Notes: a model not told the origin generated them from the sequence alone. Positions 26,870 through 62,629 are shown, counted from the first letter of the stretch. The stretch: 64,000 nt of DNA from an uncultured Actinomycetes bacterium (GCA_963790335.1 CAWBOB010000007.1:508905-572904); one strand, 5' to 3'. Numbers and translations are program-made.

Positions 26870-26900
26870 ACCCGAGCCCCTTCGCGGTACCGTGACCCGC

Positions 26901-27974: not shown

Positions 27975-28051
27975 CCTGGTTTGCCGGTCCGATCGACGGG
28001 TAACGGTCCGGTCACCCGGCGCATCCGGCGCCGCCGACGGGAGGGGAAGCG

Positions 28052-28492
28052 ATGGACGCGCTGAAGCTGCTGAAGCACGACCACGACGAGGTCAAGAAGA
28101 TGCTCGCCGATCTCGAGGACACCACCGAGCGCGCCGAGAAGACCCGCACCGAGGGACTCGCGACGCTGAAGCACGAGCTCGAGATCCACGAGACGATCGA
28201 GGAGGAGATCTTCTACCCGGCGCTCAAGGAGCACCCGAAGACGAAGGACCTCGCTCTCGAGGGGTACGAGGAGCACCACGTCGTCGACACGATCATGGGC
28301 GAGCTCGAAGGCGTGGAGCCGAGTGACGAGACCTGGATGGCCAAGTTCTCGGTCATGAAGGAGAACCTCGAACACCACATCTCCGAGGAAGAGGACGAGA
28401 TGTTCCCGAAGGTCGAGCAGGTCTTCGACGACGAGGAGCTCGAGGATCTCGGGAACCGCATGCTCGAGCGCAAGGAAGCGCTGCAGGCGTAG
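28052..28492 (+). CDS. Hemerythrin HHE cation-binding domain protein
   Basis: His/Glu-rich helices (LKHDHDEVKK, HETIEEEIF, EEHHVVD, EHHISEEEDEMF) are typical of the hemerythrin-like family. Confidence 0.65.
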   Translation: MDALKLLKHDHDEVKKMLADLEDTTERAEKTRTEGLATLKHELEIHETIEEEIFYPALKEHPKTKDLALEGYEEHHVVDTIMGELEGVEPSDETWMAKFSVMKENLEHHISEEEDEMFPKVEQVFDDEELEDLGNRMLERKEALQA

Positions 28493-28522
28493 CCGCGTGG
28501 TTTCGCGCTAGTCTGAGTTGGA

Positions 28523-29605
28523 CTACTCAGGATCGTCGGCGTCGGGCCACGCCGGTGGCTCGACGCCGAGCTGCTCGAACCCCACGCTCAGTGGATCTCG
28601 GTCGTCGCGCCAGCGCACGAACGTGGCGGCGTGTCGGAACCGCCCGTACTGCATGCGGTCGATCGTGACCTCCGCCACGAGCACCGGCTCGATGGTGACC
28701 CACTCGAGGTCCTTCCCGGCCGTCCACCGGCTGGGGCCGCCGGGCGCGCGTCCGCCCTCGAAGCTCGCGCCGCCCTCGAGCTGCCGGAGCTCTTCCAGCA
28801 TCGCCCGGCGTTCGGCGGCCTTGAACGACGAGGTGTGCCCAACGTAGTGGAGCGTGCCCGCGTCGTCGTAGAGGCCGAGCAACAGGGCGCCGATGCCGTC
28901 GCGGGTCTTCGACAGCCGGTAGCCCCCGATCACGACGTCGAGGGTGCGCCGGTGCTTCACCTTCACCCATCCTCGCTCGCCGGGCAGGTACGGCTGGTCG
29001 TCGCGCTTGGCGAGCACGCCGTCCTGTCCGAGCCCGTCTTCGTCGGCGAACCAGGCTCCCATGACCCCGGCGTCGGGGGTCCAGGGTGCGACGAGCACGA
29101 CCGGAGCCGGTGGCATCGAGGGCAGGTCGCCGGGCGCCTGCGGCCAGCGCATCGTCGCGGCCAGGGCCGCGAGCCGCTCTCGGCGTTCGACCAAGGCGAG
29201 CGGAACCAGGTCGTCGCCGGCGTCGCGCAGCAGATCGAAGACGACGAGCGTCGCCGGGATCTCCCCGGCGAGCTTGCGCACCCGCGACTCCGCCGGATGC
29301 AACCGGAGCTGCAGCTCGTCGAAGTCCATCGAGCCGTCGGCGACGCGCACGATCTCGCCGTCGGCGACGAACGACGCGTCACCGCCCGAGTGCTCGAGCG
29401 CCTCGATCAACTCCGGGAAGTAGCGCCCGAGCGGACGTCCGTCCCGGCTCGCCAACCGACCCACGCCGTCTGCATCGACCGCCGCGATCGTGCGGAAGCC
29501 ATCCCACTTCGGCTCATAGGTCCACCCGGCACCCGTGGGCGGATCGGGTTGCAGCTTGGCGAGCATCGGCGCCGGAAGATCGCCGGCGATCGTGCGCTTG
29601 GGCAT
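28523..29605 (-). CDS. ATP-dependent DNA ligase (LigD ligase domain / LigC-like) with OB fold
   Basis: Adenylation motifs (YEPKWDGFR with catalytic Lys, FDLL, VLAKRDDQPY...KVK). Confidence 0.75.
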   Translation of the reverse strand: MPKRTIAGDLPAPMLAKLQPDPPTGAGWTYEPKWDGFRTIAAVDADGVGRLASRDGRPLGRYFPELIEALEHSGGDASFVADGEIVRVADGSMDFDELQLRLHPAESRVRKLAGEIPATLVVFDLLRDAGDDLVPLALVERRERLAALAATMRWPQAPGDLPSMPPAPVVLVAPWTPDAGVMGAWFADEDGLGQDGVLAKRDDQPYLPGERGWVKVKHRRTLDVVIGGYRLSKTRDGIGALLLGLYDDAGTLHYVGHTSSFKAAERRAMLEELRQLEGGASFEGGRAPGGPSRWTAGKDLEWVTIEPVLVAEVTIDRMQYGRFRHAATFVRWRDDRDPLSVGFEQLGVEPPAWPDADDPE

Positions 29606-29614
29606 GGCCCGACC

Positions 29615-41014: not shown

Positions 41015-42283
41015 TCAGCTCACGCCGGCCTTGAACCTCGCCCACTCGTCCTGGTAGAGCTGGTCATCTGCGGGCGCGAGCGGTAGCACGGGCTGGCCCT
41101 GCGCGAAGTCCTCCTCGGCCACCAGCGTGTTCTCCAGGTTCGGCGGGATGTAGCCGGCGTCGAGGAACTCCTGCACGGTCCACGCCCGACGAGGGGCGGC
41201 TGGAACCCCTCGTAGCCGAAGTTCGTCAGGCGCGACCTCCTTGTCCAACAGGAAGTTGATGAACAGGTGCGCGAGTACCGGGCTCTCGGCCGCGCTGTTG
41301 ATCACGATCGTGTCGTTGGCGACCTCCCAGCCGCCCTCGGGCGGGTAGTAGTAGCCGAGCACATCGACCTCGGTGCCCTTCGGCAGGTACCACTGCGCGT
41401 AGTTCATGTTCCCCGACCACGAGTAGCGCACGTGGCTCGTGCCCTCGGCGAGCTTCTGGTAGTCGCCGGGGCCGATCTCGACGTTCACGAGGTCGATCAT
41501 CTCGAGCAGTGAGTCGACGGCTGCCGCGAGCTCGGCCTGGTCGGTGGAGTTGAAATCGGTCCCCCGTTGCGGAGCAGCGCCATGCCGATCGTCTCGCGGT
41601 ATTCGTCGAGCACACCGACCTTGCCCGCGTACTTCGTGTCCCAGAAGATGTCGAACGGCATGTCGTAGGTCGACGGGTCGTCGACGAAGTCGCGGCGGTA
41701 CCCGATGCCGGTCTTCCACGTGAGGTAGGGCATCGTGTACTGCGGCCCTGCGTCGTACCAGGGGTCCTGGAAGTTCGGCCAGATGTTCTGCAGGTTCGTC
41801 ATGTACGTGTGGTTCCAGGGCTGCACGCGCTTGGCGGCGACGAGCTTGCCGACGTTCTCGATCGTCGGGAAGAACAGGTCCCACTGCGATCGTGTCGTTC
41901 TGGACCTTGTTCATGGCCTCGGCCATGCCGGCGAACTGCGTGAACTCGATCTCGACGCCGAACTCCGCCTCGAACTGCTTGATGACCTTCTTGTAGATGT
42001 AGTCGTTCCAGTTGTAGACGCGGAGCGGACCAGCTTCCTGCGTGAGGCCATCGTCGATCGCGGGGATCTCCTCGTAGAGGGGCAGGGTCACCGGGCTCTC
42101 GGGTGAGCCGAGCGGGATGCCGCCCTCGGCGGTCGTCGGGTCGGGTCCCGATCCGGCGTCGGTCGAGCTGTCGCGGCACGCCGCCAGCACGGCGCTCATC
42201 GAGGGAAGCGCGATGCCGGCGGCAGCCGCACGCTTGAGGAACTCACGCCGGGTACGGGCCGGTCGCTCGTTCGGATGCGCCAC
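41015..42283 (-). CDS. potD: ABC transporter substrate-binding protein, spermidine/putrescine (PotD/PotF-like), TAT lipoprotein; two apparent frameshifts (about 41570, about 41880)
   Basis: TAT motif TRREFLKRAAAAG plus lipobox. N- and C-terminal parts are in one frame and the middle (ORF 41497..41826) in another. One indel sits in a C5/G5 run. Confidence 0.55.
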   Translation of the reverse strand: MAHPNERPARTRREFLKRAAAAGIALPSMSAVLAACRDSSTDAGSGPDPTTAEGGIPLGSPESPVTLPLYEEIPAIDDGLTQEAGPLRVYNWNDYIYKKVIKQFEAEFGVEIEFTQFAGMAEAMNKVQNDTIAVGPVLPDDRERRQARRRQARAALEPHVHDEPAEHLAELPGPLVRRRAAVHDALPHVEDRHRVPPRLRRRPVDLRHAVRHLLGHEVRGQGRCARRIPRDDRHGAAPQRGTDFNSTDQAELAAAVDSLLEMIDLVNVEIGPGDYQKLAEGTSHVRYSWSGNMNYAQWYLPKGTEVDVLGYYYPPEGGWEVANDTIVINSAAESPVLAHLFINFLLDKEVAPDELRLRGVPAAPRRAWTVQEFLDAGYIPPNLENTLVAEEDFAQGQPVLPLAPADDQLYQDEWARFKAGVS

Positions 42284-42434
42284 TGAAGAACCCCCTTGGT
42301 GTGCACGGACAGTCATGCGGGGTCTACCGGCGCAGCGCAAGGCTGTCAAGGCAAGGGCGGAACACGAACCTTGACCGGTGGTCGTCGGGCGGTGGCTCTG
42401 CACGCGCGGGTTCGCAAGTGCTAGCGTCCGCGCG

Positions 42435-43388
42435 ATGGCTCGGTGGCGCAGATCGACGCCGGAGAACTCGCTCACCATGCTGTATCCGCGCGGGTTCTGG
42501 AAGTGGGCCGCGACACCCGGGGTGCTCTGGCTGGTCCTGCTGTTCGTGGTGCCGTTCTACGCCATCGTCTCGATGGCCGGCGGCACGCTGAACCCGCAGA
42601 CGGGCCTCGCGGTGCCACAGTGGAACCCTTCCTACTGGGATCGCGCGTCGTTCGGCTACGTCTTCGAGCAGCTGCTGTCGCCCGAGGGCGTCTACCGCGT
42701 CGTGTTCCTGCGAACGCTGCGCTACGTCTTCACCGCGGTCGTGCTCTGTGTGGTGATCGGCTACCCGGTCGCCTACCACGTGTCGCGCCTGCGTGGGCGC
42801 ACGAGGGGCATCGTGCTCGGGCTGCTGGTGCTGCCGTTCTGGATCAGCTACCTGATGCGCATGCTCGCGTGGGTGGGGCTGCTCAACGAGGAGGGTCTCG
42901 TCAACCGTGTGCTCACCGGCATCGGCGTGCTGCAGGACCCCTATCCCTGGCTCGAAGGCAAGGCCGTCACGGTGATCCTCGGCCTCGCCTACGGATACGT
43001 GCCCTTCCTGATCCTGCCGCTGTTCGCCGCGCTCGACCGGCTGCAGACCAGCTACCTCGAGGCCGCCTGGGATCTCGGCGCGAGCTCGTTCAGCACCTTC
43101 CGGCGGGTCACCCTTCCGCTGTCGAAGAACGGCATCCTCGCCGGGGTCGCGATCATCATGCTGCCGATGTTCGGCGACTTCTACACCGCTTACCTGCTCT
43201 CGAACGGCCGATCGAGCACGGCGATGATCGGCAACTCGATCCAGTCGCTGCTGCTGGAGACGACCTTCGGATACGCGCAGGCCCGCGGCGCGGCTCTCGT
43301 CACCGTGCTCGCGCTGTTCGTCTCGGTGCTCACGCTCTACTACATCGTCTCGACGGCTCGATCGACGCGAGAGGCGGCTCGGGCGTGA
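42435..43388 (+). CDS. potB: ABC transporter permease (PotB-like)
   Basis: Six TM helices and the EAA-like loop (LEAAWDLGASSFSTFRRVTLPLS). Confidence 0.7.
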   Translation: MARWRRSTPENSLTMLYPRGFWKWAATPGVLWLVLLFVVPFYAIVSMAGGTLNPQTGLAVPQWNPSYWDRASFGYVFEQLLSPEGVYRVVFLRTLRYVFTAVVLCVVIGYPVAYHVSRLRGRTRGIVLGLLVLPFWISYLMRMLAWVGLLNEEGLVNRVLTGIGVLQDPYPWLEGKAVTVILGLAYGYVPFLILPLFAALDRLQTSYLEAAWDLGASSFSTFRRVTLPLSKNGILAGVAIIMLPMFGDFYTAYLLSNGRSSTAMIGNSIQSLLLETTFGYAQARGAALVTVLALFVSVLTLYYIVSTARSTREAARA

Positions 43389-43401
43389 CGGTGATGCTTC
43401 G

Positions 43402-44280
43402 GTGAGCGTCGTCGGCAACCTGCTCGCGAACCCGTGGCGCAAGCATCGGTTCCTCGCCCTCTATACGTGGGTCTACCTCGCGTGGGCGATCGTTCCCGTC
43501 GTGATCGCGATCGGATTCTCGTTCAATGCAGGGCGATCCCGGAGCGTCTGGCAGGGCTTCTCCCTGGAATGGTGGATCCACAACCCCGACCTCTCGGTGC
43601 TGCACGACCCGACGCTCACCTCGGCGATCCGCCAGAGCCTCGTGCTCGCGGTCGCGACCATGGGCATCGCCACCCCGATCGGTGTCGCGCTCGCGCTCGG
43701 GCTCGCGCGATGGCGGGGACGGGGATCGGGCTCGGCTAACTTCCTCATGCTGCTGCCGCTCGTCACGCCCGAGATCGTGCTCGCGACCGGCATCTTCTTC
43801 ACCCTCGTCTACCTGTATCCGTTCCCTGACCCGGGCACCGTGGGACAGATCTTCGGTCACGTGACGTGGTCGATCCCCTACGTCGTCGTGGTGCTTCGCG
43901 GGCGCATCTTCAGCGTCGGCGCCGATCTCGAGGAAGCGGCCATGGACCTCGGGGCGACGCCGATCGACGCCCTGCGCCGCGTGCTGCTGCCCGCGCTCAC
44001 GCCCGCGGTCTTCGCGGCCTTCACGATCGTGTTCGCGCTGTCGATCGACGACTTCGTCACGAGCCAGTTCCTCTCGACCGACCTCAAGACACAGACCGTG
44101 CCGATGCTGATCTACAGCTCGGGACGCACGGCCCCGAACCCCGCGCTGAACGCGACCGCCACGCTCATGCTCGTGATCTCACTCGCCGCGATCGGCGTCG
44201 GCCTCGGCGGCATGCGCGTGCTCTCGAAGCGCCAGGGCGTGCAGGCCGAGAGCTCCGACGTGGCGAACATCCGCCTGTAG
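43402..44280 (+). CDS. potC: ABC transporter permease (PotC-like)
   Basis: Six TM helices and the EAA loop (LEEAAMDLGATPIDALRRVLLP). GTG start. Confidence 0.7.
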   Translation: MSVVGNLLANPWRKHRFLALYTWVYLAWAIVPVVIAIGFSFNAGRSRSVWQGFSLEWWIHNPDLSVLHDPTLTSAIRQSLVLAVATMGIATPIGVALALGLARWRGRGSGSANFLMLLPLVTPEIVLATGIFFTLVYLYPFPDPGTVGQIFGHVTWSIPYVVVVLRGRIFSVGADLEEAAMDLGATPIDALRRVLLPALTPAVFAAFTIVFALSIDDFVTSQFLSTDLKTQTVPMLIYSSGRTAPNPALNATATLMLVISLAAIGVGLGGMRVLSKRQGVQAESSDVANIRL

Positions 44281-48850: not shown

Positions 48851-49408
48851 CTAGTCGCGGGCGCGCTCGGCGACGAACGCCCTGAGCTGCGGAAGGTGCG
48901 CCTCGGCGTGCCGGAACGGCCCGCCCGGGCCGCCCAACAGGTTCCCGAGACGCACACCCGCGGCCGTGCGGCCGCGTGGAGTGCCCGGACGCTTCCACCG
49001 TGCGTCGCCGAGTGCGTCGAGCCTCGCGACCAGCCGCTCGTGCGTGGCCTCGGCTCGACGCCGCTGATCGGACGCGCGCCGTGACGATTTGGCGTTCACG
49101 GCGTCGCCGTTGAGCGCCGATGTGCTGGTGGACCAGATCACCGCGTCGATGGCGGGGCCGTGACCGGCTTCCCAAGCATCGAGGGCTTCCAGCGCGTACT
49201 CCTGCCAACTCTCCAGGTGGCCGAGCAGATCCTTGGGCGACCACTCGCCGCCTCCGAGCCCGCGCGTCGTGCGCGCCCGGGGAGGAAGCCGGTCGTACAA
49301 CGAGAACACCTCGGCCATGCCTTCGCGGAGGATGCGGATCGCGCGGCGTCTCGTCGGCACGGCGTGCCCGCGGCCGGACCCGCCGTTCGAGGTCTGATCG
49401 GTGGCCAT
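48851..49408 (-). CDS. ClbS/DfsB-family (DUF1706) four-helix-bundle protein
   Basis: WSPKDLLGHLESWQEYALEALDAW resembles the ClbS/DfsB signature. Start uncertain (49408 or 49318). Confidence 0.45.
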   Translation of the reverse strand: MATDQTSNGGSGRGHAVPTRRRAIRILREGMAEVFSLYDRLPPRARTTRGLGGGEWSPKDLLGHLESWQEYALEALDAWEAGHGPAIDAVIWSTSTSALNGDAVNAKSSRRASDQRRRAEATHERLVARLDALGDARWKRPGTPRGRTAAGVRLGNLLGGPGGPFRHAEAHLPQLRAFVAERARD

Positions 49409-49420
49409 GTCACGTCGAGC

Positions 49421-50386
49421 CTAGAGGCCGTCGTCAGAGGCGGCGAGCCACCAGCGTGCGGCGAGCAGCTCGACCACGAGCGTCTCGCAGAGCAGCGCCA
49501 CCAACGGGTCGTCGTCGTGGCGGTACCGCACCGTGAGCGCGGCGCCCTCGACGTCGCCGCCGACCGCGACCACCGTCGCCCGACGCTCGAGCATCCACTC
49601 CATGATCGCCGTGTCGAAGCGCGAGCCCGCGAAGAGCACCGCCCGATAGTCGAGCGGCTTCGTGAGGTAGACATCGACGTGCAGCCAGTCGCCCGACTCG
49701 CACGCGTCGGCCACGCGACGCGGGCCCTCCCGCAGCATGAGCGCCGCCTGCTCCGCCGAGGCGAAACGCTCGGCGGGCGCGATCGTGAACACCGGACCCT
49801 CGCCGAGGGCCTGCGCCACCGCGGGCAGCCAGCGGTCGCGGCGCGCCAGCAGGTCATCGCTCGCATCGGCCGCGCGGCGTACGGCGAGCGGCACCTCCGA
49901 TGCGGCGTCGCCGGAGATCGCTGTCTCGAGCGCCAGGAGCAGCGCAAGGGTGTGGTGGAACGAACGGCAGGCGACGCCACCTTCCTCGTCGGCGGCGAGC
50001 ATCGAGACCACCGAGTCGGCAGCTCGCTCGATGGCCGAGCCGGACCGGTTCGTGAGGGCGACGGTCGAGCTCACACCTCGGTGGCGCGCGAGCGCCTCGA
50101 TCGTCTCTGGCGTCTCGCCGCTCGCCGAGACGCCCACTGCGAGCAAGCCGGCAGCCGGAGGTGTGCCGGCGGTCAGCGAGGCGAGCTCCGCGACCGCGTC
50201 GACGCCACGGGCGCGCATCCTCGTCGCGACGGCGCCCGCGGCGTACCGAGACGAGCCCATGCCGATCATCACGACGCTCATCGCGGCGGCGTTCGGCCAG
50301 GGCTCGCGCTCGTCGAGCGAGTCGGCGAGGGCACGCAACGTTTCCGGCGTGCGCTCCAGGTCGCGAACGAACGCAGCGGGGTCCAT
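49421..50386 (-). CDS. SIS-domain phosphosugar isomerase/aminotransferase-like protein
   Basis: SIS signature (IGMGSSRYAAG, VGVSASGETPETIEA). The ATG 50386 overlaps the stop of the upstream kinase (ATGA). Confidence 0.6.
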   Translation of the reverse strand: MDPAAFVRDLERTPETLRALADSLDEREPWPNAAAMSVVMIGMGSSRYAAGAVATRMRARGVDAVAELASLTAGTPPAAGLLAVGVSASGETPETIEALARHRGVSSTVALTNRSGSAIERAADSVVSMLAADEEGGVACRSFHHTLALLLALETAISGDAASEVPLAVRRAADASDDLLARRDRWLPAVAQALGEGPVFTIAPAERFASAEQAALMLREGPRRVADACESGDWLHVDVYLTKPLDYRAVLFAGSRFDTAIMEWMLERRATVVAVGGDVEGAALTVRYRHDDDPLVALLCETLVVELLAARWWLAASDDGL

Positions 50387-51727
50387 CAGGCTTCCAGAGG
50401 GACCAGGGCCTGCATCGCGAGGTCGGGCACGTACGTCCACGACGGCAGGAAGCGCGCCGCGTAGACGTACTCGTGGCACTCCTGCGCGATCTCCAGCGGG
50501 CGCAGCAGGCGTTCGTCGTAGAGCCGGCGGTGCCCGCGCGCATCGAGCTCGCGCACGTAGGCCCGCAGGAACGCCGCCCGCGACGCACCGATCCACGCGT
50601 CGATCGCGGCGTCACGTCCCGGTTTGCGCCTCGTCGCGATGCGTCCGAGGTGGTCGATCGACCGCACGAACGCCGCGACGTCGCGCACCGGCGTGTCGAG
50701 CGCTCCGTGCTCGCCGGGCGAGGACAGCGGGTTGCCGTCGAAGTCGGTGATCGCGAAGCCGTCTCGCCACTCGAGCACCTGTCCCACGTGGAAGTCGCCA
50801 TGGATCCGCATCACGACCGGACCCGCATCCCCGGCCCGGGTCTCGCCGAGGCGGTCGAGCTCGGCGCGGATCGCGGGCTCGCGCGCGGCGAGCCGCGCTC
50901 CCTCGGCCCCCCCGGTGAGCGCGAGCGCCTGGTCGGCCACGGCGTGGGCGGCGGCCCGCCACGACCCGACGACCCCGGCGTCGGCCGTCGCGGTCGGCGC
51001 CGGTGCGAGCTCTGTCGCCGAGGCCAGCGCCGCGTGCATGTGGGCGGCCAGCGCACCGAGCACCGCAGCGGGCTCAGACATGATCTCGTCCTCGCTCACC
51101 GGCCCCCCCTCGCCGTCGAGCCGGGTGAGCAGCCGGTGCAGGTACCAGTCCCATCCGTCGCGCGCCTCGGGCAGATAGGTCGATGCCGTCGCCAGCACCC
51201 ATCGACGGTCGTCGTCGTCGCGCCAGTGCACGGAGCCCAGCGGGGCCGGGATCGACGTGAACCCGGCGGCCGAGAGGCGGGCGGGCAGGCCCGCGTCGGC
51301 GGTTGCGGCACCGCCGGTCCTCGGGTAGAGCTTCACGACGACCCCCTCCCCCACCACTACGGACTCGTTCGACTGATCGACGTCGATCGCGTGTTCGCCG
51401 CCCCCGGCCGGCACCCGCCCGGCGCGCTCCATCGGCTCGAACGAGAATCGGCCGTCGGCGCCACCGGCAGCCAGCCGTGAGAGCAGGCGCTCGAACGCCC
51501 CATCGCCCGGCTCGGCTCGACGCAGGTCGCCATCGGAGCCCACCACCACCGGTGCCACCAACAGCCCCTGCGCGATCGACGACGACCAGGAGGAGCAGCC
51601 CGTCGCCGAGCTCGAGCGAGTCGCGCACCTCGACCCGGCCCGTTGCCTCGGGGGCCGAGGCGGACCGGCGCGGAGGCAACAGCGCCGTGGCGTCGAGCGC
51701 CTCCACGCGCCGGGCCGGACCGCCCAC
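50386..51727 (-). CDS. Maltokinase/GlcN-kinase-like sugar kinase (aminoglycoside-phosphotransferase fold); apparent frameshift near 51560
   Basis: C-terminal kinase core (RIHGDFHVGQVL, DGFAITDFDGNP). N-terminal cap domain in the frame of ORF 51074..51727. GTG 51727 is 3 nt after the GT1 stop. Confidence 0.55.
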
Positions 51728-51730
51728 CGC

Positions 51731-53038
51731 CTATCCCGAGACCGGCTCGCCCGTGATCGCCACCTGCTCGATCAGGTCGGCGCCGCGCACACGGCCCGGG
51801 TCGGCCTGGATGCGCTCGGCGTTGCGCCGCATGCGAGCCCGCAGGTCGTCGTCGGCGAGCAGCCGATCGACCGTGCCGATCAGCTCGTCGTCGCTCCAGT
51901 CGTAGGTTGGCAGCCGCTCGCCGAACCCCGTCTCCCGCAGGCGCTGGGCGTTGTCGTACTGGTCCCAGAACAAGGGCAGGCCGATCATCGGCAGCCCGAA
52001 ATGGAAGCCCTCGCACACCGTGTTGTTGCCGCCGTGCGTGATGAGCAGATCGCACTGCGGAAGGATCGACGGCTGCGGCAGGAACTGCCCGCCGTACATG
52101 TTCGAGCCGAGCGTCATCTGTTCGTGGAGCGGACCCATCGAGACGATGGTTCGGTGCTCGGTCTTCGCCAGTGCGTCGATGAGCCGCTGCATCAAGCCGA
52201 CGTCCATGCACCCGAGCGATCCGAGCGACAGGTAGACCACCTTGCCGTCGCCCGGCACGTGCTCGTCCACGTCGAAGGCTTCCTCGTTGGTGCGCACCGT
52301 CGAGTTGAGGCGATGCCAGCTCGGGTCGAGCGGCACCGAGCGCGGGTAGTCGGCGACCTCGGGGAACAGGTACATGTTGAGCCACGGCGAGTGCGTGTTG
52401 AACTCGTCGGGCGGGCACGCCGCCACCCCCACCGACTCGCGGAACCCGTTGTGCTCGGCCAGCAGCTCCTCGTGCTGGCGGTGGTACTCGTCGGCGAACG
52501 CCTGCCACTGGCTGCGGTCGTCGATCGGCAGACCCGAGAGCACCGGGGGAAGGTCGGGGTCGCGCATCTCCAGCGGGTTCGCCGACACGAACCGCACCCA
52601 CGGGCACCCAGCCAGCTCGATCGCCGCGTAGCCCGTCACGTTGTCGGTGCACACGACGTCGGGCCGCACGTCGGCCCAGATCTCCATGAGCCGGTCGTGC
52701 GAGTAGCGCTCGCCGGCCACGAGCGCCTCCCAGATCGGCTTCGTGACCGTCTCGATCTGCTCGATCGTGGGCTTTCGGAACTCGGGCGCCGTGACCCTGA
52801 TGAACTCCGCCCACGGGTCGGCGGTCGGGTCGGCGTTCTCCTCGGGGGGGGCCATGCGCATCATGCGTTCCTCGAACCCGCGCTTCGTCAGCTCGCCCTC
52901 GAACGACTCGTCGACCACGAACACGATGCGGTGGCCGCGCTCGGCCAGCACGTTCGCGATCGCAACGCAGTTGTTGGTGGGCCCCCACGCGCCGGGCTCC
53001 GGGAAGAAGGCGATCGTCTTGGCGTCGGTCTTCGTCAT
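51731..53038 (-). CDS. Glycosyltransferase family 1 (UDP-glycosyltransferase/MGT-like)
   Basis: GT-B fold with a UDP-sugar binding C-terminus (HGGNNTVCEGFHFGLPMIGLPLFWDQYDNAQR). Confidence 0.7.
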   Translation of the reverse strand: MTKTDAKTIAFFPEPGAWGPTNNCVAIANVLAERGHRIVFVVDESFEGELTKRGFEERMMRMAPPEENADPTADPWAEFIRVTAPEFRKPTIEQIETVTKPIWEALVAGERYSHDRLMEIWADVRPDVVCTDNVTGYAAIELAGCPWVRFVSANPLEMRDPDLPPVLSGLPIDDRSQWQAFADEYHRQHEELLAEHNGFRESVGVAACPPDEFNTHSPWLNMYLFPEVADYPRSVPLDPSWHRLNSTVRTNEEAFDVDEHVPGDGKVVYLSLGSLGCMDVGLMQRLIDALAKTEHRTIVSMGPLHEQMTLGSNMYGGQFLPQPSILPQCDLLITHGGNNTVCEGFHFGLPMIGLPLFWDQYDNAQRLRETGFGERLPTYDWSDDELIGTVDRLLADDDLRARMRRNAERIQADPGRVRGADLIEQVAITGEPVSG

Positions 53039-53134
53039 GCCTCTCGCTCCTTTCGGCGGCGCCGGGACTATGCCACAGCCGGCGTCGTAGGATGGCGCAA
53101 CCTCGACCCCTCGACTCCTGCAGGAGGATCGCCA

Positions 53135-54698
53135 GTGTCTGGTTCCACTCGACGTCGCCCGCTCGTCTCACTCGCGTCGACGACCCTTGCGCTGTGCCTG
53201 TCGATGCAGCTGATCGCATCGCTCGGCGCCCCCGTCGCTGCCGAGCCCGCCCGGCGCGGACTCGCCCCCGCGACGCCGGAGCTCATCGACCGTGCCGTGC
53301 GCCGCGGCGTGATCTCCGAGGCGCGTGGGGCGCTCTTCCTCACGTGGGCGCTCTCGGAACCCGCGCGTCTCCCCGAGGCGTACGTGAGCGGCACCCCGTG
53401 GTCGGGCACGCTGCCCCTGCTGCGGTTGCGCGAGCGCCTGGCCACGCTGGGGCACGCACCGGCCGCCGTGGCCGCGCGCGCGGCGCTGCGCGGACAGTCC
53501 TTCGCATGCCCCGGCACGCGCGGACGGCTCCCGCATCGGCGGGTCACCGAGCACTTCCTCATCCAGTACAAGGCTTCGGCGCTCCGGGGCCTCGCCATCC
53601 GCAAGTACGCGGGCGCGCTGGAGTCATCGTGGAGAACCGAGATCACCAGGTTCGGCTGGGCCAGGCCTCCCCGCGATCCGGTGAGCTACCCGGCCGGCGG
53701 GCGCTACCCAGTGCGTATCGAGGACCTCGGCACCGGGCTATACGGATACGTGGCCAGCACGCGGTTCGCCGGCAACAATCCCGCGACCTCATGGAACGAC
53801 CGCGACGCGCTCGCGAGCTGCATGGTGCTCAACCGCAACTTCGGTCCGTTCCCCGGAAGCCCGCTCGACGCCCTGCGCGCCACATCGGCGCACGAGTTCA
53901 ACCATGCGATCCAGTTCGGCTACGGTGCGCTCACCGGCTACGGCAAGGTGACCGGCCTCTTGGTCGAGGGGCTCGCGACCGAGATGGAGGACGAGGTCTT
54001 CGACACCTCCAACGACAGCACAACTACCTGTGGCCGGACTTCCTCCTGCCGATGGGCTACTACCAGAAGCAGCCGTACCCGTACTGGGTCGTGTTCCGCG
54101 CCATGGTCGAGCGCTACGGCGAGGGCCGTCGCAACGGAGCGGAAGCCATCTACCAGGTCGTCTGGGAACAGATCAGCAAAGGGGCGAGCACGAACCTCGC
54201 GGCCCTCGCCAAGGGGTTCAGGGTCAAGAACACCACGCTGCCGACCGCCTACCACAACGCATCGATCGCCTTGCGGTTCCTGGTGAACTGCGCCACGACC
54301 TGCGATGCCTACTGCCTCGAGGAAGGCCCCAGCTACGTGGCCGCTGCCGGTGGAAACCGGAATCACGCCAGCGTGGGCGCCGTAGCTGCCACGCTCTCAC
54401 GGCAGATCGCGAACGACTACGCGCTCAACTGGATCGGTCTCCCGGTCGGCGCGCCGTTCACCCTCACCGTGACCCACGACGGCGGCGCCGGCGTACTCAA
54501 AGTCAGCATGGCATGCCGCACCGGCAAGACGCGTCACGGTCACCCCCGTCGGCACCGCGACGTCGACAGCCGACGCGAACGCCACCGGTCGACCCGAGCA
54601 CGTGCGACGCGGCGACCGCCGTGATCTCGAACGTGAAGCAGACCTCGCCCACCCCGAACTCGATCACGAGGACCGACTACACGATCTCGACCGCGTAA
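53135..54698 (+). CDS. Secreted HExxH zinc metalloprotease-like protein; two apparent frameshifts (about 54010, about 54535)
   Basis: Signal peptide after GTG (GGAGGA RBS). HEFNH motif. Body continues in ORF 53092..54624 and the tail in the frame ending at 54698. Confidence 0.45.
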
Positions 54699-54738: not shown

Positions 54739-55696
54739 TCAGGCCTGGCCGATGGGGTCGCTCGAGATGTCGCCGCGCACGGGCCCGAGCGACTCGCCGA
54801 GCTTCGCGGCGACGCGATCGATGCGCGCGAGGTAGGCGTAGATCTCGTCGCGCAGCTCCTTGGCCCGGTCGTTGAGGCCCTGCAGGTCGGCGAGCTTCCA
54901 GTGCTTGTCGAGGATCGGCCGCACCACCTGGTCGTGATGGATCCGCAGGTTGTAGATGCCCACCTGCGCCATGGCCTTGGCCTTCTCGCGGAACCCGGCG
55001 ATGCCCACGCCCGGCATGGCGAAGTTCGTGATCTGGCGATGCATCGCCTCGACCATGGCGCTGGGGTCGAGCTCGATCGCGCCCATCGCCATGTCGCGGT
55101 AGAAGACGTAGTGCAGGTTCTCGTCGGTCGCGACGCGGGAGCAGAGCTTCTCGGCGGTCTCGTCGTCGGTGATGGCTCCGGTGTTGCGGTGTGAGATACG
55201 GGTCGCCAGCTCCTGGATGGTCGTGAACACGATGCCGTCGAGCGGCCCCTGCTCGCTGAAGGCCGGGTACCAGCCCGCCCATCGCCTGGTCCATGCGGCC
55301 GCGCTCGAGGATCACGGGGTCGACGCCGCGGGTCACGGTGAGGTAGTCACGGATCACGATCGCGTGGCGGCCTTCCTCGGCGGTCCAGCGCCGCACCCAC
55401 TCGCCCCAGGCTTCCTTGTCGCCGAAGGTGCGCCAGAGCGCCAGGTGGTAGTAGGGAAGGTTGTCCTCGGTGAGCAGGTTCACCTCGAGCGCCGTCTGGG
55501 CCACGTCGGGCAGGCGCGAGTCCGAGGCTTCCCACGGCTCCTTGACGAAGTTGCGGCCCTCTTCGTACGGAACGTAGTCGTGCGGCATCCACTCGGTGGT
55601 GGTGGCGACGTGGCGATCGAGCGCCGTTCCCACCTGGGGCATCAGCTCGTGCAGGATCGCTTCGTTCGAGAGCTGCTCGCCGCGGGGTGGGGTCAT
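54739..55696 (-). CDS. desA: Acyl-ACP desaturase (soluble di-iron stearoyl-ACP desaturase family, DesA-like); apparent frameshift near 55240
   Basis: Di-iron ligand motifs (EDNLPYYHLALWR, WTAEEGRHAIVIRDYL, DENLHYVFYRDMA). GAGGAG RBS before ATG 55696. Confidence 0.6.
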
Positions 55697-55922
55697 GTGC
55701 TCGCTCCTCATCGTTCCGGTCGCCCGACTGTGGTGCATCGGTTCGGAACCGGAACCTCTGCAAGGGCGCTGCCACCATGACCGCTCTGCCCCGAGGGAGT
55801 AGCGGATCGCCCTCAAGGGTACAGCGTGGGGACCGCGAGCGTGCGCATGCCCCGCGACGGCGTGCATCCGAGCGGGTTCGGAGCGCGAAGAAGGTGTCGC
55901 ACATCACGGATGGGAGCACACG

Positions 55923-57254
55923 GTGCGGATCGCGATCGTCGGAAGCGGCATCTCGGGACTCGGCGCGGCGTGGGCGCTCTCCCGTCAGCAGCACCACGTG
56001 GTCCTCTACGAACGCGAGGACCAGGCAGGCGGACACGCGAACACCCACGAGGTCGAGGATCGCGGGCGCATCGTGCCGGTCGACACCGGCTTCATCGTCT
56101 ACAACGAGCGGAACTATCCGAACCTGGTGCGGTTGTTCGAAGCCCTCGGGGTCGCGACCGAGCCGAGCGACATGTCCTTCTCGGTCTCCGTCGCCCGGGG
56201 CGCCTTCGAGTACCGGGCTCGCACGCTCGGCCTCGCGGCCCAGCCCTCGAACCTGGCGCGTCCCTCCTACCTGCGCATGGTGCGCGAGATCGTGCGGTTC
56301 AGCCGCGACGCCAAGGCGCTCGTGGGCGCGCCCACGACCGAGACGACCGGGGACTGGCTCGAGCGCACCGGGTACTCACCGGCGTTCCGTCACGACTTCC
56401 TGCTGCCCATGGTGGCGTGCATCTGGTCATCGAGCCTGCACGAGATGCTCGCGATGCCGGTGCGCACGATGGCGGCGTTCCTCGACAACCATGGGCTGCT
56501 CGACCTCGGAGACCGCCCGCAGTGGCGCACGGTCACCGGTGGAAGCCGCGAGTACGTCCGCCGGATCGTGGCGGGCATCGACGAGGTGCGGACCGGGGCG
56601 CCGGTGGTCTCGATCACGCGGGAAGGATCCGACGGCGTGCTGGTGCGAGATGCGACCGGACGCGTCGAGCGGTTCGACCACCTGGTGCTCGCGACCCACG
56701 CCGATACCGCGCTCGAGATCCTGGGCGGCGACGCCACGCGCGACGAGCGCCGGCTGCTCTCGTGCTTCCGGTACCAGCGCAACGTCGCCGTGCTGCACCG
56801 TGATCCTGCGTTCATGCCGAAGCGGCGGCGGGCGTGGTCGAGCTGGAACTACCTCGCCCCCGAGCGGGTGCGATCCGCGAGCGGCGGCGATGGCGGCGTG
56901 TCACTCACCTACTGGATGAACCTGTTGCAGAACCTCGACACCGAGCGGCCGGTGCTCGTGACGCTGAACCCGTTCGATGAACCGCGCGATAGCACCGGCT
57001 CGTTCGTCTATCACCATCCGCAGTACGACCGAGCCGCGGTCGAGGCGCAGGCGGAGCTGTCCTCGCTGCAGGGCACGAGGCGCACCTGGTTCTGCGGAAG
57101 CTACTTCGGACATGGATTCCACGAGGACGGGCTCCGGTCGGGGCTGGCCGTCGCGGCGGCGCTCGGCGCCCCGCCCCCATGGGCGCCTGATCACGACACG
57201 GTCGCCCGGCCCGATGCGACCGGCATCCCGGCGCTCACGGGCACACGACCATGA
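55923..57254 (+). CDS. FAD/NAD(P)-binding amine-oxidase-like oxidoreductase (CrtI/COQ-like; the oxidoreductase of the CFA-synthase-associated operon)
   Basis: Dinucleotide-binding N-terminus MRIAIVGSGISGLGAAWAL. 443 aa. Confidence 0.65.
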   Translation: MRIAIVGSGISGLGAAWALSRQQHHVVLYEREDQAGGHANTHEVEDRGRIVPVDTGFIVYNERNYPNLVRLFEALGVATEPSDMSFSVSVARGAFEYRARTLGLAAQPSNLARPSYLRMVREIVRFSRDAKALVGAPTTETTGDWLERTGYSPAFRHDFLLPMVACIWSSSLHEMLAMPVRTMAAFLDNHGLLDLGDRPQWRTVTGGSREYVRRIVAGIDEVRTGAPVVSITREGSDGVLVRDATGRVERFDHLVLATHADTALEILGGDATRDERRLLSCFRYQRNVAVLHRDPAFMPKRRRAWSSWNYLAPERVRSASGGDGGVSLTYWMNLLQNLDTERPVLVTLNPFDEPRDSTGSFVYHHPQYDRAAVEAQAELSSLQGTRRTWFCGSYFGHGFHEDGLRSGLAVAAALGAPPPWAPDHDTVARPDATGIPALTGTRP

Positions 57255-58054
57255 ACAGCGGCCTCTTCGTCGGCACCGTGATGCACGAGCGATCGTTCCC
57301 CCGACGGCATCGGCTCTCGTACCGGGTCTGGTACCTGCTCGTCGACCTCGACGAGCTGCCGGAGCTCGACCGCCGTGTGACGGGGTTCGGACACAATCGC
57401 CCGGCGCCGGTGAGCGTGCACGACGCCGACCACGGCGCGCGCGACGGCTCGCCCCTTCGCCCCTGGATCGATGCACGGCTCGCCGAGGCCGGCGTCGACC
57501 TCGAGGGCGGCGCGGTGCGGTTGCTCACGTTCCCGCGCATCTTCGGCTACGTGTTCAACCCGATCTCGGTCTGGTTCTGCCACGGACCCGATGACGACCT
57601 GCGTGCGATCCTCTACGAGGTCTCGAACACGTTCGGTGAATGGCACGACTACCTGGTGCCGGTCGCCCCCGGCGACGTGACCGGCAACGGCCGCGCGCGC
57701 AGCCTGCGAACCGTCTTCGACAAGCAGCTCTACGTCTCGCCCTTCATCGACATGGCCGCGAGCTACGACTTCACGACCCGCGTGCCCGACGAGCGGGTCT
57801 CGGTCGTGGTGCGGGAGACCGCGGCCGGCGGGCGGGTGCTGGTGGCGACGCTGGGTGCCACCCGCCGGCCGCTCACCGGGCGCGGGCTCGCATCGGTGCT
57901 CGCTCGGTACCCGCTGCTGACCCTGAAGGTGATCGGCGGCATCCACTGGGAAGCGGCGAAGCTGCGGCTCAAGGGCGCTCCCTACCGCCGGCGGGGGGCG
58001 CCGCCTGCCTCGACGATGACCGTCGTCGACCATCGGGATAGGGTCGGCACATGA
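57251..58054 (+). CDS. DUF1365 family protein
   Basis: N-terminus MNSGLFVGTVMHERSFPRRHRLSYRVWYLLVDLDEL is typical of DUF1365. The start overlaps the upstream stop (ATGA). Confidence 0.65.
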   Translation: MNSGLFVGTVMHERSFPRRHRLSYRVWYLLVDLDELPELDRRVTGFGHNRPAPVSVHDADHGARDGSPLRPWIDARLAEAGVDLEGGAVRLLTFPRIFGYVFNPISVWFCHGPDDDLRAILYEVSNTFGEWHDYLVPVAPGDVTGNGRARSLRTVFDKQLYVSPFIDMAASYDFTTRVPDERVSVVVRETAAGGRVLVATLGATRRPLTGRGLASVLARYPLLTLKVIGGIHWEAAKLRLKGAPYRRRGAPPASTMTVVDHRDRVGT

Positions 58055-59241
58055 ACGGGCTGGCCGGGGCCGCCGAGCGACGCATCCTCGAGATCGTGGG
58101 GAGCCGTGTGCGCGCAGGGCGGGCATCGATCACGCTTCCCGACGGCACCCACCGCACGTTCGAAGGGCACCACCCTGGCCCCGCTGCACACGTGACGCTG
58201 CACCGCTGGCGGCCGCTTCGGCTGGTGACGACGACGGGCGCGATCGGACTCGCCGACGCGTACGTACGCGGCGACTACGACGTCGACGACCTCGAGGCGT
58301 TCCTGGAGCTCTGCGCCCTGCACCTGGAGCCCGCCTTCCACGAGCCGGTGCCGGGCTGGCTGCATGCGCTGGGCCGGACCGCATGGAAGCTGCTCGGCGA
58401 CCCCGCGCGCCCGCGTGGCCCCCTCACCGACATCGTGCAGCACTACGACCTCGGCAACGAGTTCTACGGAGCGTGGCTCGACGAGACGATGACCTACTCC
58501 TCGGCGGTGTTCGCACGCGACGACATGACGCTCGCCGAGGCGCAGCGCGAGAAGTATCGGCGGCTCGCAGCCACGACAGGCGTGCAGCCGGGCGAGCGGG
58601 TGCTCGAGATCGGGTCGGGCTGGGGCGCGTTCGCGGTCTACCTCGCGACGGAGCTCGACTGCCACGTCACGACGGTCACGATCTCGAAGGAACAGCACGA
58701 GTACGTCGAGAAGCTCGTCGTCGAGCACGGACTGGTGGATCGTGTGGAGGCCCGCCTGCAGGACTTCCGTCTGGTCGACGGTACCTACGACCGCATCGTG
58801 TCGATCGAGATGATGGAGTCGGTGCCCCAGCGGCTCTGGCGGCCCTTCTTCCGACAGCTGCGTGACCGGGTGCAGGCGCACGGCTCGATCGGACTCCAGC
58901 TGATCGTCGTCGCCGACCATCACTGGCGCGACTCCGACGAGCATCCCGACTTCGTGCGGCGCTACATCTTCCCTGGCGGGCAGGTGCCCTCGCCGTCGGT
59001 GCTGCACGATCTCGCGTCGGAACATGGCTTCGTCTGGCGTGAGGACCGCGGCTTCGGCGCCTCGTACACGCGCACCCTCGCCGGATGGCTCGAGGCGTTC
59101 GACGCCGCGTGGCCGAGCATCGAGCGGATGGGCTTCGACGAACGGTTCCGGCGCATGTGGCGCTACTACCTCGCCTACTGCGGAGCGGGATTCGCGAGCG
59201 GACGCACCGACGTTCGCCAGATCGTGCTCGACCCCGTCTGA
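58051..59241 (+). CDS. cfa: Cyclopropane-fatty-acyl-phospholipid synthase family SAM-dependent methyltransferase
   Basis: SAM-binding VLEIGSGWGAFAVYLA. C-terminal signature ...YLAYCGAGFASGRTDVRQIVL. The start overlaps the DUF1365 stop. Confidence 0.8.
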   Translation: MNGLAGAAERRILEIVGSRVRAGRASITLPDGTHRTFEGHHPGPAAHVTLHRWRPLRLVTTTGAIGLADAYVRGDYDVDDLEAFLELCALHLEPAFHEPVPGWLHALGRTAWKLLGDPARPRGPLTDIVQHYDLGNEFYGAWLDETMTYSSAVFARDDMTLAEAQREKYRRLAATTGVQPGERVLEIGSGWGAFAVYLATELDCHVTTVTISKEQHEYVEKLVVEHGLVDRVEARLQDFRLVDGTYDRIVSIEMMESVPQRLWRPFFRQLRDRVQAHGSIGLQLIVVADHHWRDSDEHPDFVRRYIFPGGQVPSPSVLHDLASEHGFVWREDRGFGASYTRTLAGWLEAFDAAWPSIERMGFDERFRRMWRYYLAYCGAGFASGRTDVRQIVLDPV

Positions 59242-61198: not shown

Positions 61199-61279
61199 CC
61201 CGCGACCCAACCGCTTGGGTGCTTGCATCGAGCACATGGTCCCGTAGCCTCGCGCCTGGGCCTGCAGACACCCTCAGGC

Positions 61280-62629
61280 ATGCCGATAACCGCCGCAGAG
61301 ACCATGACGACGTTCCTGACCGACCTCGACCTGCATCCGCTCGACGGGCTCGCGGTGCGCATCCGCGATCGCTCGGCGACCACGGCCGTGATCGGGCTGG
61401 GCTACGTCGGGCTGCCGCTGCTCGTCGGCATGCACGGAGCCGGATTCCGGGTGATCGGTGTCGACGCCGACCGGCGCAAGATCGACGGGCTGCGATCACG
61501 CCGGTCGCACATCGGCGACCTCTCGGACTCCGCGATCGGGGCGCTGGATCGAGCGACCTTCGACGCCGACCCCGGTGTGCTCGCCGAAGCCGACGTGATC
61601 GTGCTCTGCCTGCCGACCCCGCTCACCGACGGTGCCCCCGACCTCTCCATGGTGCTCGAGGCGGCCGAAAGCGTCGCGCGGCACCTGCGGCCCGGCATGC
61701 TCGTGGTGCTCGAGTCCACCACGTACCCCGGCACCACCGAGGAGTTCCTTCGGCCGATCCTGGAGCGGACCGGCCTGCGCGCCGGGCTGGACTTCGCCCT
61801 CGCCTACAGCCCCGAACGCATCGATCCCGGCAACCGCGACCACGGGCTCGCCACCACCCCGAAGATCGTGGCGGGACTCACCGCCCGGTGCCGCGACCTC
61901 GCGTTCTCGTTCTACTCGGCATTCGTGCAGACCGTCGTGACGACGTCGTCGCCGCGGGAGGCCGAGATGGCCAAGCTCATCGAGAACACCTACCGCCAGG
62001 TGAACATCGCGCTCGTCAACGAGCTGGCGGTGCTCGCCCGCGACCTGGGGGTCGACATCTGGGAGGCGCTCCGCGCCGCGGCGACGAAGCCCTTCGGCTA
62101 CCAGCCGTTCTGGCCCGGCCCCGGCGTGGGCGGGCATTGCATCGCGATCGACCCCACCTACCTGTCCTGGCGAGCGGGCCAGCAGCTCGGCCACCGCGTC
62201 GAGTTCATCGAGCACGCGAACGAGGTCAACAACCGCATGCCCGACTACGTGGTCACGCGCATCGGCGAAGCCCTGAACGACGCCGGAAAGCCGATCAACG
62301 GCTCGAAGGTGCTCGCGGTGGGGGTGGCGTTCAAAGCGGGCGTCGACGATCTGCGCGGGTCACCCTCGCTCATGGTGCTCGAGCGGCTCGCCCGCCGCGG
62401 AGCCGTGGTTGCCTACCACGACCCGCTCGTCCCCGTGTGCACGATCGAGGGCGAGGAACACCGCTCGGTGCCGCTCGACGCTTCCACCGTCGGGAACCAC
62501 GACATCGTCGTGCTGCTCACCCCGCACCGGGGCCTCGACGTGCACGCCCTCGTGAGCTCGGCCGCCATGGTGTTCGACGCGCGCGGGGTCACCGTGGGGA
62601 TCGACGCCCCCCACGTCGTGCGGCTCTGA
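61280..62629 (+). CDS. Nucleotide-sugar dehydrogenase (UDP-glucose/GDP-mannose dehydrogenase family; UDP-GlcNAc 6-dehydrogenase-like)
   Basis: N-terminal Rossmann VIGLGYVGLPL, central catalytic region, C-terminal UDP-binding domain. Start ambiguous (61280 or 61304). Confidence 0.75.
   Translation: MPITAAETMTTFLTDLDLHPLDGLAVRIRDRSATTAVIGLGYVGLPLLVGMHGAGFRVIGVDADRRKIDGLRSRRSHIGDLSDSAIGALDRATFDADPGVLAEADVIVLCLPTPLTDGAPDLSMVLEAAESVARHLRPGMLVVLESTTYPGTTEEFLRPILERTGLRAGLDFALAYSPERIDPGNRDHGLATTPKIVAGLTARCRDLAFSFYSAFVQTVVTTSSPREAEMAKLIENTYRQVNIALVNELAVLARDLGVDIWEALRAAATKPFGYQPFWPGPGVGGHCIAIDPTYLSWRAGQQLGHRVEFIEHANEVNNRMPDYVVTRIGEALNDAGKPINGSKVLAVGVAFKAGVDDLRGSPSLMVLERLARRGAVVAYHDPLVPVCTIEGEEHRSVPLDASTVGNHDIVVLLTPHRGLDVHALVSSAAMVFDARGVTVGIDAPHVVRL

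Follow-up and report, generated by a model that had tools for sequence, protein, structure and literature searches.

We analysed a 64,000-nucleotide stretch of DNA from an uncultured Actinomycetes bacterium (contig CAWBOB010000007.1; hereafter the window, with positions counted from its first letter), in which a glycosyltransferase, a kinase resembling glucosamine (GlcN) kinases (GlcNKs) and a SIS-domain protein are encoded one after the other on the minus strand. The whole 64-kb window has a G+C content of ~69%, and its minus-strand interval 48851–53038 is filled by four closely packed coding regions whose G+C content at third codon positions (GC3) is high, as in genuine genes of such genomes. 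The first encodes a GT1-family UDP-sugar glycosyltransferase (GT) of 435 aa (51731–53038; Pfam UDPGT, EryCIII-like_C and Glyco_tran_28_C), and direct reading places a Shine-Dalgarno-like AAAGGAG (53047–53053, minus strand) 8 nt 5′ of its ATG. The kinase gene follows in two pieces: a 5′ part for the N-terminal cap (VGGPARRVEALDATALLPPRRS...VVVD; 51576–51727), delimited by reading frame, GC3, tblastn and alignment to the relative L081, and the main part of a GlcN-kinase-family gene (50386–51573), recognized by its motifs, by profile and PDB searches and by its place in a tree. Between them, frame, GC3 and alignments to homologues and L081 locate a frameshift of one extra base (51574–51576). A 321-aa SIS-domain phosphosugar isomerase/deaminase-like protein (49421–50386; Pfam SIS) and a 185-aa DinB_2-superfamily protein (48851–49408; Pfam DinB_2) complete the set.

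In the order GT, kinase, SIS and DinB-like, the genes are spaced by 3, −1 and 12 nt, the DinB_2 gene starting 12 nt past the SIS stop codon. A sequence-only reading of this locus had described three translationally coupled minus-strand genes, and three open reading frames (ORFs) for GT1, kinase and SIS do fill 49421–53038. The GT stop codon TAG (51733–51731) indeed precedes a GTG at 51727 by 3 nt (TAG gcg GTG), as direct reading confirmed. The kinase/SIS overlap, given there as ATGA, is actually TGATG, stop and start codon having a single base in common (A at 50386); an identical 1-nt overlap occurs in L081, which has the same layout and an intact kinase. Of the translational coupling itself, the tight spacing stands, but GTG 51727 does not share the reading frame of the kinase's catalytic part, which ends at 50386. 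The 120-bp divergent intergenic region upstream of the GT gene yielded no sigma-70-like promoter, a terminator scan gave terminator-like sites no more numerous than in shuffled controls, and an Rfam scan of 47.5–54.5 kb returned neither a riboswitch nor a glmS ribozyme.

The fold and catalytic features of GlcNKs are all present in the kinase: a P-loop VDQSNESV that conforms to VDQ[TS]NESV, the phosphate-binding lysine (Lys77), HGDFHVGQ with its D-x-H (D256, H258), and DFD (D273-F-D275). The stretches HGDFHVGQVL and DFDGNP, on which the sequence-only reading had relied, were both found in the translation. Fold and catalytic motifs are the same in maltokinases (Mak), many homologues are automatically annotated as 'maltokinase', and the kinase shares with the mycobacterial Mak/Pep2 enzymes (4O7O, 4U94, 5JY7) an N-terminal cap, an intermediate subdomain and a C-lobe along with the ATP-binding and catalytic motifs. 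The kinase might, then, be a maltokinase of ordinary alpha-glucan metabolism whose treS and glgE partners lie elsewhere in the genome. Profile searches and sequence searches of the PDB point the other way. The best NCBIfam model was GlcN_kinase (NF041273; 271.5 bits, E = 1e-80), whereas the TreS-fused maltokinase model (TIGR02457, TreS_Cterm) gave 150.8 bits, under its cutoff of 375. In the PDB, SjGlcNK (6hwj) was matched with 218 bits, compared with 64–73 bits for three solved maltokinases, and the window kinase and SjGlcNK share 44.6% identity. A neighbour-joining tree rooted on MsMak united all GlcNK-type kinases in one clade, with MsMak as a distant outgroup. The window kinase lies inside this clade and does not cluster with true maltokinases, as the sequence-only reading had allowed it might, and the GlcN-kinase assignment therefore stands.

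The substrate pocket agrees with this placement. Residues were placed on SjGlcNK numbering, which was checked against the motifs printed by Manso et al. (PMC6520443), and eleven of the twelve sugar-site residues proved to be kept (W195, D300, H302, H348, Q405, E409, Y412, A413, L417, P418 and W420), the only altered one being R408, which is His363 in the window kinase. Conversely, the maltose contacts K426, Y370 and R438 of MtMak correspond to Q360, H304 and L372, as in SjGlcNK, so that the proposed comparison of Mak/Pep2 with GlcNKs, substrate pocket included, resolves in favour of the latter. Both characterized family members, SjGlcNK of Streptacidiphilus jiangxiensis and MsGlcNK of Mycolicibacterium smegmatis (PDB 6HWJ/6HWK/6HWL), are reported to phosphorylate GlcN at O6 and to be inactive on maltose (PMC6520443). 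Among the window ORFs scanned against Pfam, there is no linkage to treS, glgE or glgB and no treS fusion. On scores, residues and context, we rejected the maltokinase alternative, whose probability we put close to nil: the kinase is a member of the GlcN-kinase family, and not a maltokinase.

The exchange at R408 is not peculiar to this genome. His occupies the position in every sequence of an alignment of 31 relatives and in 116 of the 123 closest database proteins. We further compiled 80 loci from a scan of species-representative genomes (all statistics on this set are without correction for shared ancestry), among which the residue is Arg in 44, His in 26 and Asn in one, the motif not being located in the remaining nine. 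In the neighbour-joining tree, the His-type kinases form a single derived subclade nested among those of Arg type, and SjGlcNK sits on another, Arg-type branch. The R408-to-His exchange is the mark of a whole subclade of uncultured soil Actinomycetota. Since this clade is without the signature Arg, signature-based searches miss it.

As assembled, the kinase gene is interrupted. Translation and a sliding GC3 profile show that the coding frame switches near 51575, and in tblastn comparisons with intact homologues of 427–440 aa (P0002, P0003 and P0009), residues 1–44 match frame −3 and the remainder frame −1; GTG 51706 is an alternative start for the 5′ part. In the closest relative, the Logan contig L081 (89% DNA identity), an intact 440-aa kinase is followed by the SIS gene. 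Where the window reads GTCGATCGCGCAG, L081 reads GTCGA-CGCGCAG (GATCGCG versus GA-CGCG), and because L081 is without that base, we conclude that the window carries a 1-nt insertion. The main kinase ORF has its first start codon at TTG 51561. Of the database entries, only P0001 (NCBI, ENA) is identical to the window kinase; it is a 390-aa product that begins after the break, at GTG 51558.

One explanation is that the frameshift is real and that the kinase, and with it the cassette, is a decaying relic without function in the source organism: the insertion cuts off the N-terminal cap, in which an LLPPRR motif is almost invariant, from the remaining kinase sequence, and genes nearby are broken too. 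Yet the GT, SIS and DinB-like genes are intact, and the kinase and three nearby genes together accumulate at least six frame breaks within ~14 kb without any fragment losing its high GC3, which points to an indel-prone assembly. With breaks also in the three neighbours, an error of the assembly consensus is the likely cause of the break in the kinase, likelier at any rate than a decay specific to that gene, and we consider the relic explanation unlikely. The three neighbours, each split across frames relative to intact homologues, are a secreted HEFNH metalloprotease-like gene (53162–54689, plus strand), an acyl-ACP desaturase gene (54742–55762, minus strand) and a PotD-like binding-protein gene (41126–42166, minus strand). 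Their breaks lie near 54017, 54560 and 55260 and at 41.5–41.9 kb.

The SIS protein contains one Pfam SIS domain and gave weak NCBIfam matches to glmS and to NagB-II, the NagB_SO3506 model scoring 33.5 bits, well under its cutoff of 430. A profile of its family (21 members) searched against the PDB matched the NagB-II GlcN-6-phosphate (GlcN-6P) deaminases 8eol and 3hba with ~59 bits, level with 7kqa and 3knz, two PDB entries that carry no functional assignment, and the GlmS isomerase domains with ~41 bits. FrlB-like deglycases scored lower than NagB-II (3eua, 26 bits; 2a3n, 24 bits). Deglycases and deaminases both have the catalytic Glu and His, which would therefore not discriminate between the two. 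Ser46, Ser87, Glu220 and His236 of the window protein align to Ser52, Ser97, Glu227 and His243 of SdNagBII; Ser87 is conserved in at least 90% of the 21 family members and the other three are invariant. In the published account of SdNagBII, which describes the roles of these residues, the four are equivalent to Ser303, Ser347, Glu488 and His504 of Escherichia coli GlmS (PMC10201695). Like NagB-II (Shewanella, 8EOL/3HBA) and the GlmS isomerase domain, the window protein has a double-SIS architecture of ~320 aa, an S-x-S-G-[ET] phosphate-binding loop and equivalents of the catalytic residues. Unlike them, it is very distant in sequence and bears invariant motifs of its own family (GGVACRSF, REGPRR and GDWxHVDVY), and it has no glutaminase domain such as that of GlmS. 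As far as alignments can tell, it has the catalytic residues of the amino-sugar-phosphate isomerase/deaminase group, to which it belongs as a distant member with a family of its own.

The third component, the GT, scored 111 bits with the NCBIfam MGT model (cutoff 260). Its best PDB matches, over nearly the full length, are the spider-mite enzymes UGT203A2 and UGT202A2 (E = 9e-56 and 4e-51), mite enzymes acquired from bacteria; bacterial macrolide GTs rank far below. In common with TuUGT202A2, TuUGT203A2, OleD and OleI, it has a GT-B fold, the UDP-hexose motif and the Asp of the catalytic dyad. The donor motif is complete (THGGNNT...E...WDQYDNA, matching the signature H-x-G-x-x-[ST]...E...D-Q), and donor positions G336, G337, N338, N339, T340 and Q360 are invariant in 56 kinase-linked GTs. 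The His-Asp dyad of GT1 enzymes is only half preserved: Asp140 of TuUGT202A2 aligns to Asp132, whereas His25, the catalytic base of the mite enzyme (PMC10731231), aligns to Pro20 in the motif PEPGAWGPTNNC. This Pro recurs in all 56 kinase-linked GTs from related loci, within PE-(S/PG)-A-[YWF]-G-P-T-N-[NQ]-C, and we encountered no statement on the invariant Pro (GPTN[NQ]C) of the GlcNK-linked GT1 family in the portions of the literature that were available. Neither the Asp of the dyad nor a nearby Glu (E14) varies across the kinase-linked GTs (loci L001–L079).

The window GT falls in a separate clade ('GT-A') that evolves slowly. Compared with the window, the genomes at loci L001–L015 have GTs of this type that are 81–87% identical, kinases that are ~55% identical and SIS proteins that are 57–66% identical; GTs beside Arg-type kinases are ~50% identical to the window GT. 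One locus, L011, holds both: the window type stands beside PotD-like transporter genes, the common type directly upstream of the kinase. The alignment with TuUGT202A2 also extends over the N-domain stretches comprising residues 70–113 and 182–210, which the structure paper regards as additions made after the horizontal transfer (PMC10731231). Relatives of the window GT family may be near the bacterial donor lineage of the mite enzymes.

In 2019, Manso et al. (mBio; PMC6520443) had already described a maltokinase paralogue whose gene is tightly linked to those of a GT1 and of a putative SIS isomerase of the AgaS type. The linkage of kinase, GT1 and phosphosugar isomerase pointed out by the sequence-only reading is therefore real but no novelty, and the window holds a further, divergent copy of that cassette and not a new kind. 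Kinase family, P-loop, catalytic loop and DFD are the same as in the SjGlcNK operon and MsGlcNK, as are the AgaS-type SIS and GT1 partners and the position of the SIS gene directly after the kinase gene. The differences are the His in place of Arg408, where the signature fails, the GT from another clade, an additional DinB-like gene in the lineage of the window, the frameshift of the kinase ORF in this assembly, and the absence of a phosphoglucomutase, a UDP-sugar pyrophosphorylase or a biosynthetic cluster from the window cassette.

Of the 80 loci, which stem mostly from metagenome-assembled genomes (MAGs) of soil Actinomycetota, 59 have a co-directional SIS gene immediately after the kinase gene, and about 60 have a homologous GT within 8 kb. 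The linkage of SIS, kinase and GT is more than chance. Further carriers are Streptosporangiales, a Micromonospora, Mumia, Nanopelagicales and some Chloroflexota, as well as single MAGs labelled Planctomycetaceae, Verrucomicrobiia and Rubrivirga/Rubricoccaceae. Arg-type loci have recurrent transport genes as neighbours—a PotD-like binding protein (154–169 bits), a PotA-type ATPase and two permeases—together with a TetR regulator, a DAO-family oxidoreductase, a class-III aminotransferase and an aminobutyraldehyde dehydrogenase (630 bits, above cutoff). These amine-type neighbours span Streptosporangiales, a Micromonospora, Mumia and Nanopelagicales and, outside the phylum, Rubrivirga. Beside His-type cassettes of related MAGs, we observed demethylation genes of the methylamine type and a small acetyltransferase: MttB with a corrinoid protein (L003, L008, L009, L012, L014, L022 and L030–L032), a GcvT-like gene (L011:5378–6592) and a GNAT gene between GT and kinase (L001, L002 and L015); these neighbours are absent from the window.

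Taken together, we think it probable that the locus is a copy of a conserved actinobacterial GT1/GlcNK/SIS cassette, arranged here as a four-gene minus-strand operon (GT, kinase, SIS, DinB-like) within a housekeeping neighbourhood. Extrapolating from gene order, family membership and conserved catalytic and substrate-contact residues to substrates, reaction direction and GT acceptor, the best-supported reading would be a kinase and an isomerase/deaminase that work as a pair on glucosamine or a closely analogous sugar and are coupled to a UDP-sugar transferase. In this scheme, the kinase would transfer phosphate from ATP to O6 of glucosamine or of a 2-amino sugar much like it, the SIS protein would interconvert the 2-amino-sugar 6-phosphate and fructose-6-phosphate with release of ammonia or an amine, and the GT1 would bind a UDP-hexose and pass the sugar to an acceptor without the usual His general base.

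Several observations weigh against this scheme. The helix alpha12 signature Q-x(2)-RE-x(2)-YA-x(3)-LP-x-W fails at its Arg in the window kinase (QECHEYVYAARFLPSW), where the other positions are kept, and the GlcN_kinase score of 271.5 bits, obtained with a query lacking the frameshifted N-terminus, falls short of the equivalog cutoff of 550; because of these two shortfalls, GlcN specificity is an extrapolation for the window kinase. SjGlcNK has a reported Michaelis constant (Km) of 8 mM for GlcN (PMC6520443), and GlcN may therefore not be the physiological substrate even there. The SIS family profile bears a weak similarity (59 bits) to characterized deaminases, the assembly interrupts the kinase ORF, and a catabolic pair of kinase and deaminase leaves the GT without an obvious role. 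Given its separate clade and the presence of both GT types in L011, the window GT may, moreover, be a paralogue that replaced the usual partner in the published cassette.

For the purpose of the trio, the sequence-only reading, in line with Manso et al., had proposed a dedicated pathway of amino-sugar activation and transfer. Spelled out, the kinase would convert GlcN to GlcN-6P, a mutase would turn this into GlcN-1P and a uridylyltransferase into UDP-GlcN, from which the GT1 would glycosylate the aglycone of a secondary metabolite, with the SIS protein supplying or balancing GlcN-6P. In its favour, genes for a putative phosphoglucomutase and a UDP-sugar pyrophosphorylase flank the S. jiangxiensis trio, and according to antiSMASH several copies of the trio fall within predicted biosynthetic clusters (PMC6520443). 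Rhodococcus is reported to possess a UTP pyrophosphorylase specific for GlcN-1P (work cited in PMC9093745), and the donor site of the GT is of the UDP-hexose type. Against this proposal, no mutase or uridylyltransferase adjoins the cassette, and no mutase, nucleotidyltransferase, polyketide synthase (PKS) or non-ribosomal peptide synthetase (NRPS) was found among the window ORFs scanned or among the annotated recurrent neighbour families of the 80 loci. The trio occurs also in streamlined freshwater Nanopelagicales MAGs and in Chloroflexota, and a SIS enzyme of the deaminase type would drain the very intermediate to be activated. Papers on Rhodococcus GalU2 and GlcN-1P revealed no genomic link to the GT-kinase-SIS cassette, and in the literature after 2019, we found no follow-up paper resolving the pathway of the trio. 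With deaminase-type residues in SIS and amine-related neighbours elsewhere, the context gives no backing to such a pathway, and we regard it as improbable.

The neighbours of the Arg-type loci suggest another role for the trio, in the catabolism of amines or glyco-amines. A GT1 without the catalytic His would glycosylate, or reversibly deglycosylate, an amine-type compound delivered by the PotABCD-like importer, the kinase would phosphorylate the sugar, and SIS would act as deglycase or deaminase to yield a hexose-6-phosphate and the free amine, which the neighbouring oxidoreductase, aminotransferase and aldehyde dehydrogenase would finally degrade. To our knowledge, no such pathway has been described. 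It would accommodate the PotD, PotA and permease genes and those for DAO, aminobutyraldehyde dehydrogenase and aminotransferase next to Arg-type trios of several orders, as well as the MttB/corrinoid, GcvT-like and GNAT neighbours of His-type ones. The replacement of the catalytic His by an invariant Pro fits too, since the loss may be tolerable where the nucleophile needs no deprotonation, and so does the high Km of SjGlcNK for free GlcN. However, the neighbourhood counts are uncorrected for shared ancestry, and the window cassette itself has no such neighbours, the sole PotD-like gene being ~7 kb away, weakly similar and fragmented. The SIS profile is, in addition, nearer to GlcN-6P deaminases (59 bits) than to FrlB-type deglycases (26 bits), and the chemistry leading from an N-glycoside to a GlcN-like kinase substrate is not worked out. 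We consider this catabolic route quite unlikely. Polyamine-type ABC genes in the window were not counted as part of the cassette: they lie 5–8 kb away, the two permease genes (42378–44280) are located by PPK2, and the binding-protein gene is the fragmented, weakly similar one.

More generally, the trio could be a primary-metabolism module for sugar-amine conjugates, for instance in a glycosyl-based catabolism of polyamines or other amines with a logic like that of gamma-glutamylation, and not one for the glycosylation of secondary metabolites; this generalization is a long shot. If it were true, a GT1 subfamily without the catalytic His would act on a nitrogen nucleophile, kinase and SIS would recycle the sugar as hexose-6-phosphate and set free the amine, and the His-type clade would represent a variant adapted to another amine.

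Since the cassette is already published, the window in itself contributes little more than another divergent copy. The comparative results nevertheless sharpen the question that the 2019 paper left, namely the role of the trio. Three points bear on it: a soil clade of His-type kinases, a GT family without the catalytic His, and annotated recurrent neighbours for amine import and degradation without PKS or NRPS among them. They may move the cassette from a suspected link to antibiotics toward a defined metabolic role.

The fourth gene is confined to part of this family. Of the 26 His-type loci, 21 have a DinB-like gene downstream of SIS or kinase, compared with none of the Arg-type loci, and in this lineage it is probably the operon's fourth member. 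A PDB search with the DinB-like protein gave no informative relative. Within the His-type clade, a DinB_2/MDMPI-like gene is kept beside SIS or kinase even at loci that have no SIS gene.

The remainder of the window has a housekeeping character, with genes for a class I aldolase, an L,D-transpeptidase, PPK2, a cyclopropane-fatty-acid cluster and PEP carboxylase, among others. A gene of the UDP-glucose/GDP-mannose dehydrogenase family (61199–62629, plus strand) lies ~8 kb from the GT gene on the opposite strand; its product could supply a UDP-uronic acid donor, although its proximity is probably a coincidence. An ordinary, unrelated cluster at 55923–59241 (plus strand) encodes an amine-oxidase-like flavoprotein, a DUF1365 protein and a cyclopropane-fatty-acid synthase. 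Likewise unrelated to the cassette, an end-joining pair at 26835–29614, composed of a LigD primase-polymerase (plus strand) and an ATP-dependent DNA ligase (minus strand), flanks a small hemerythrin-like gene.

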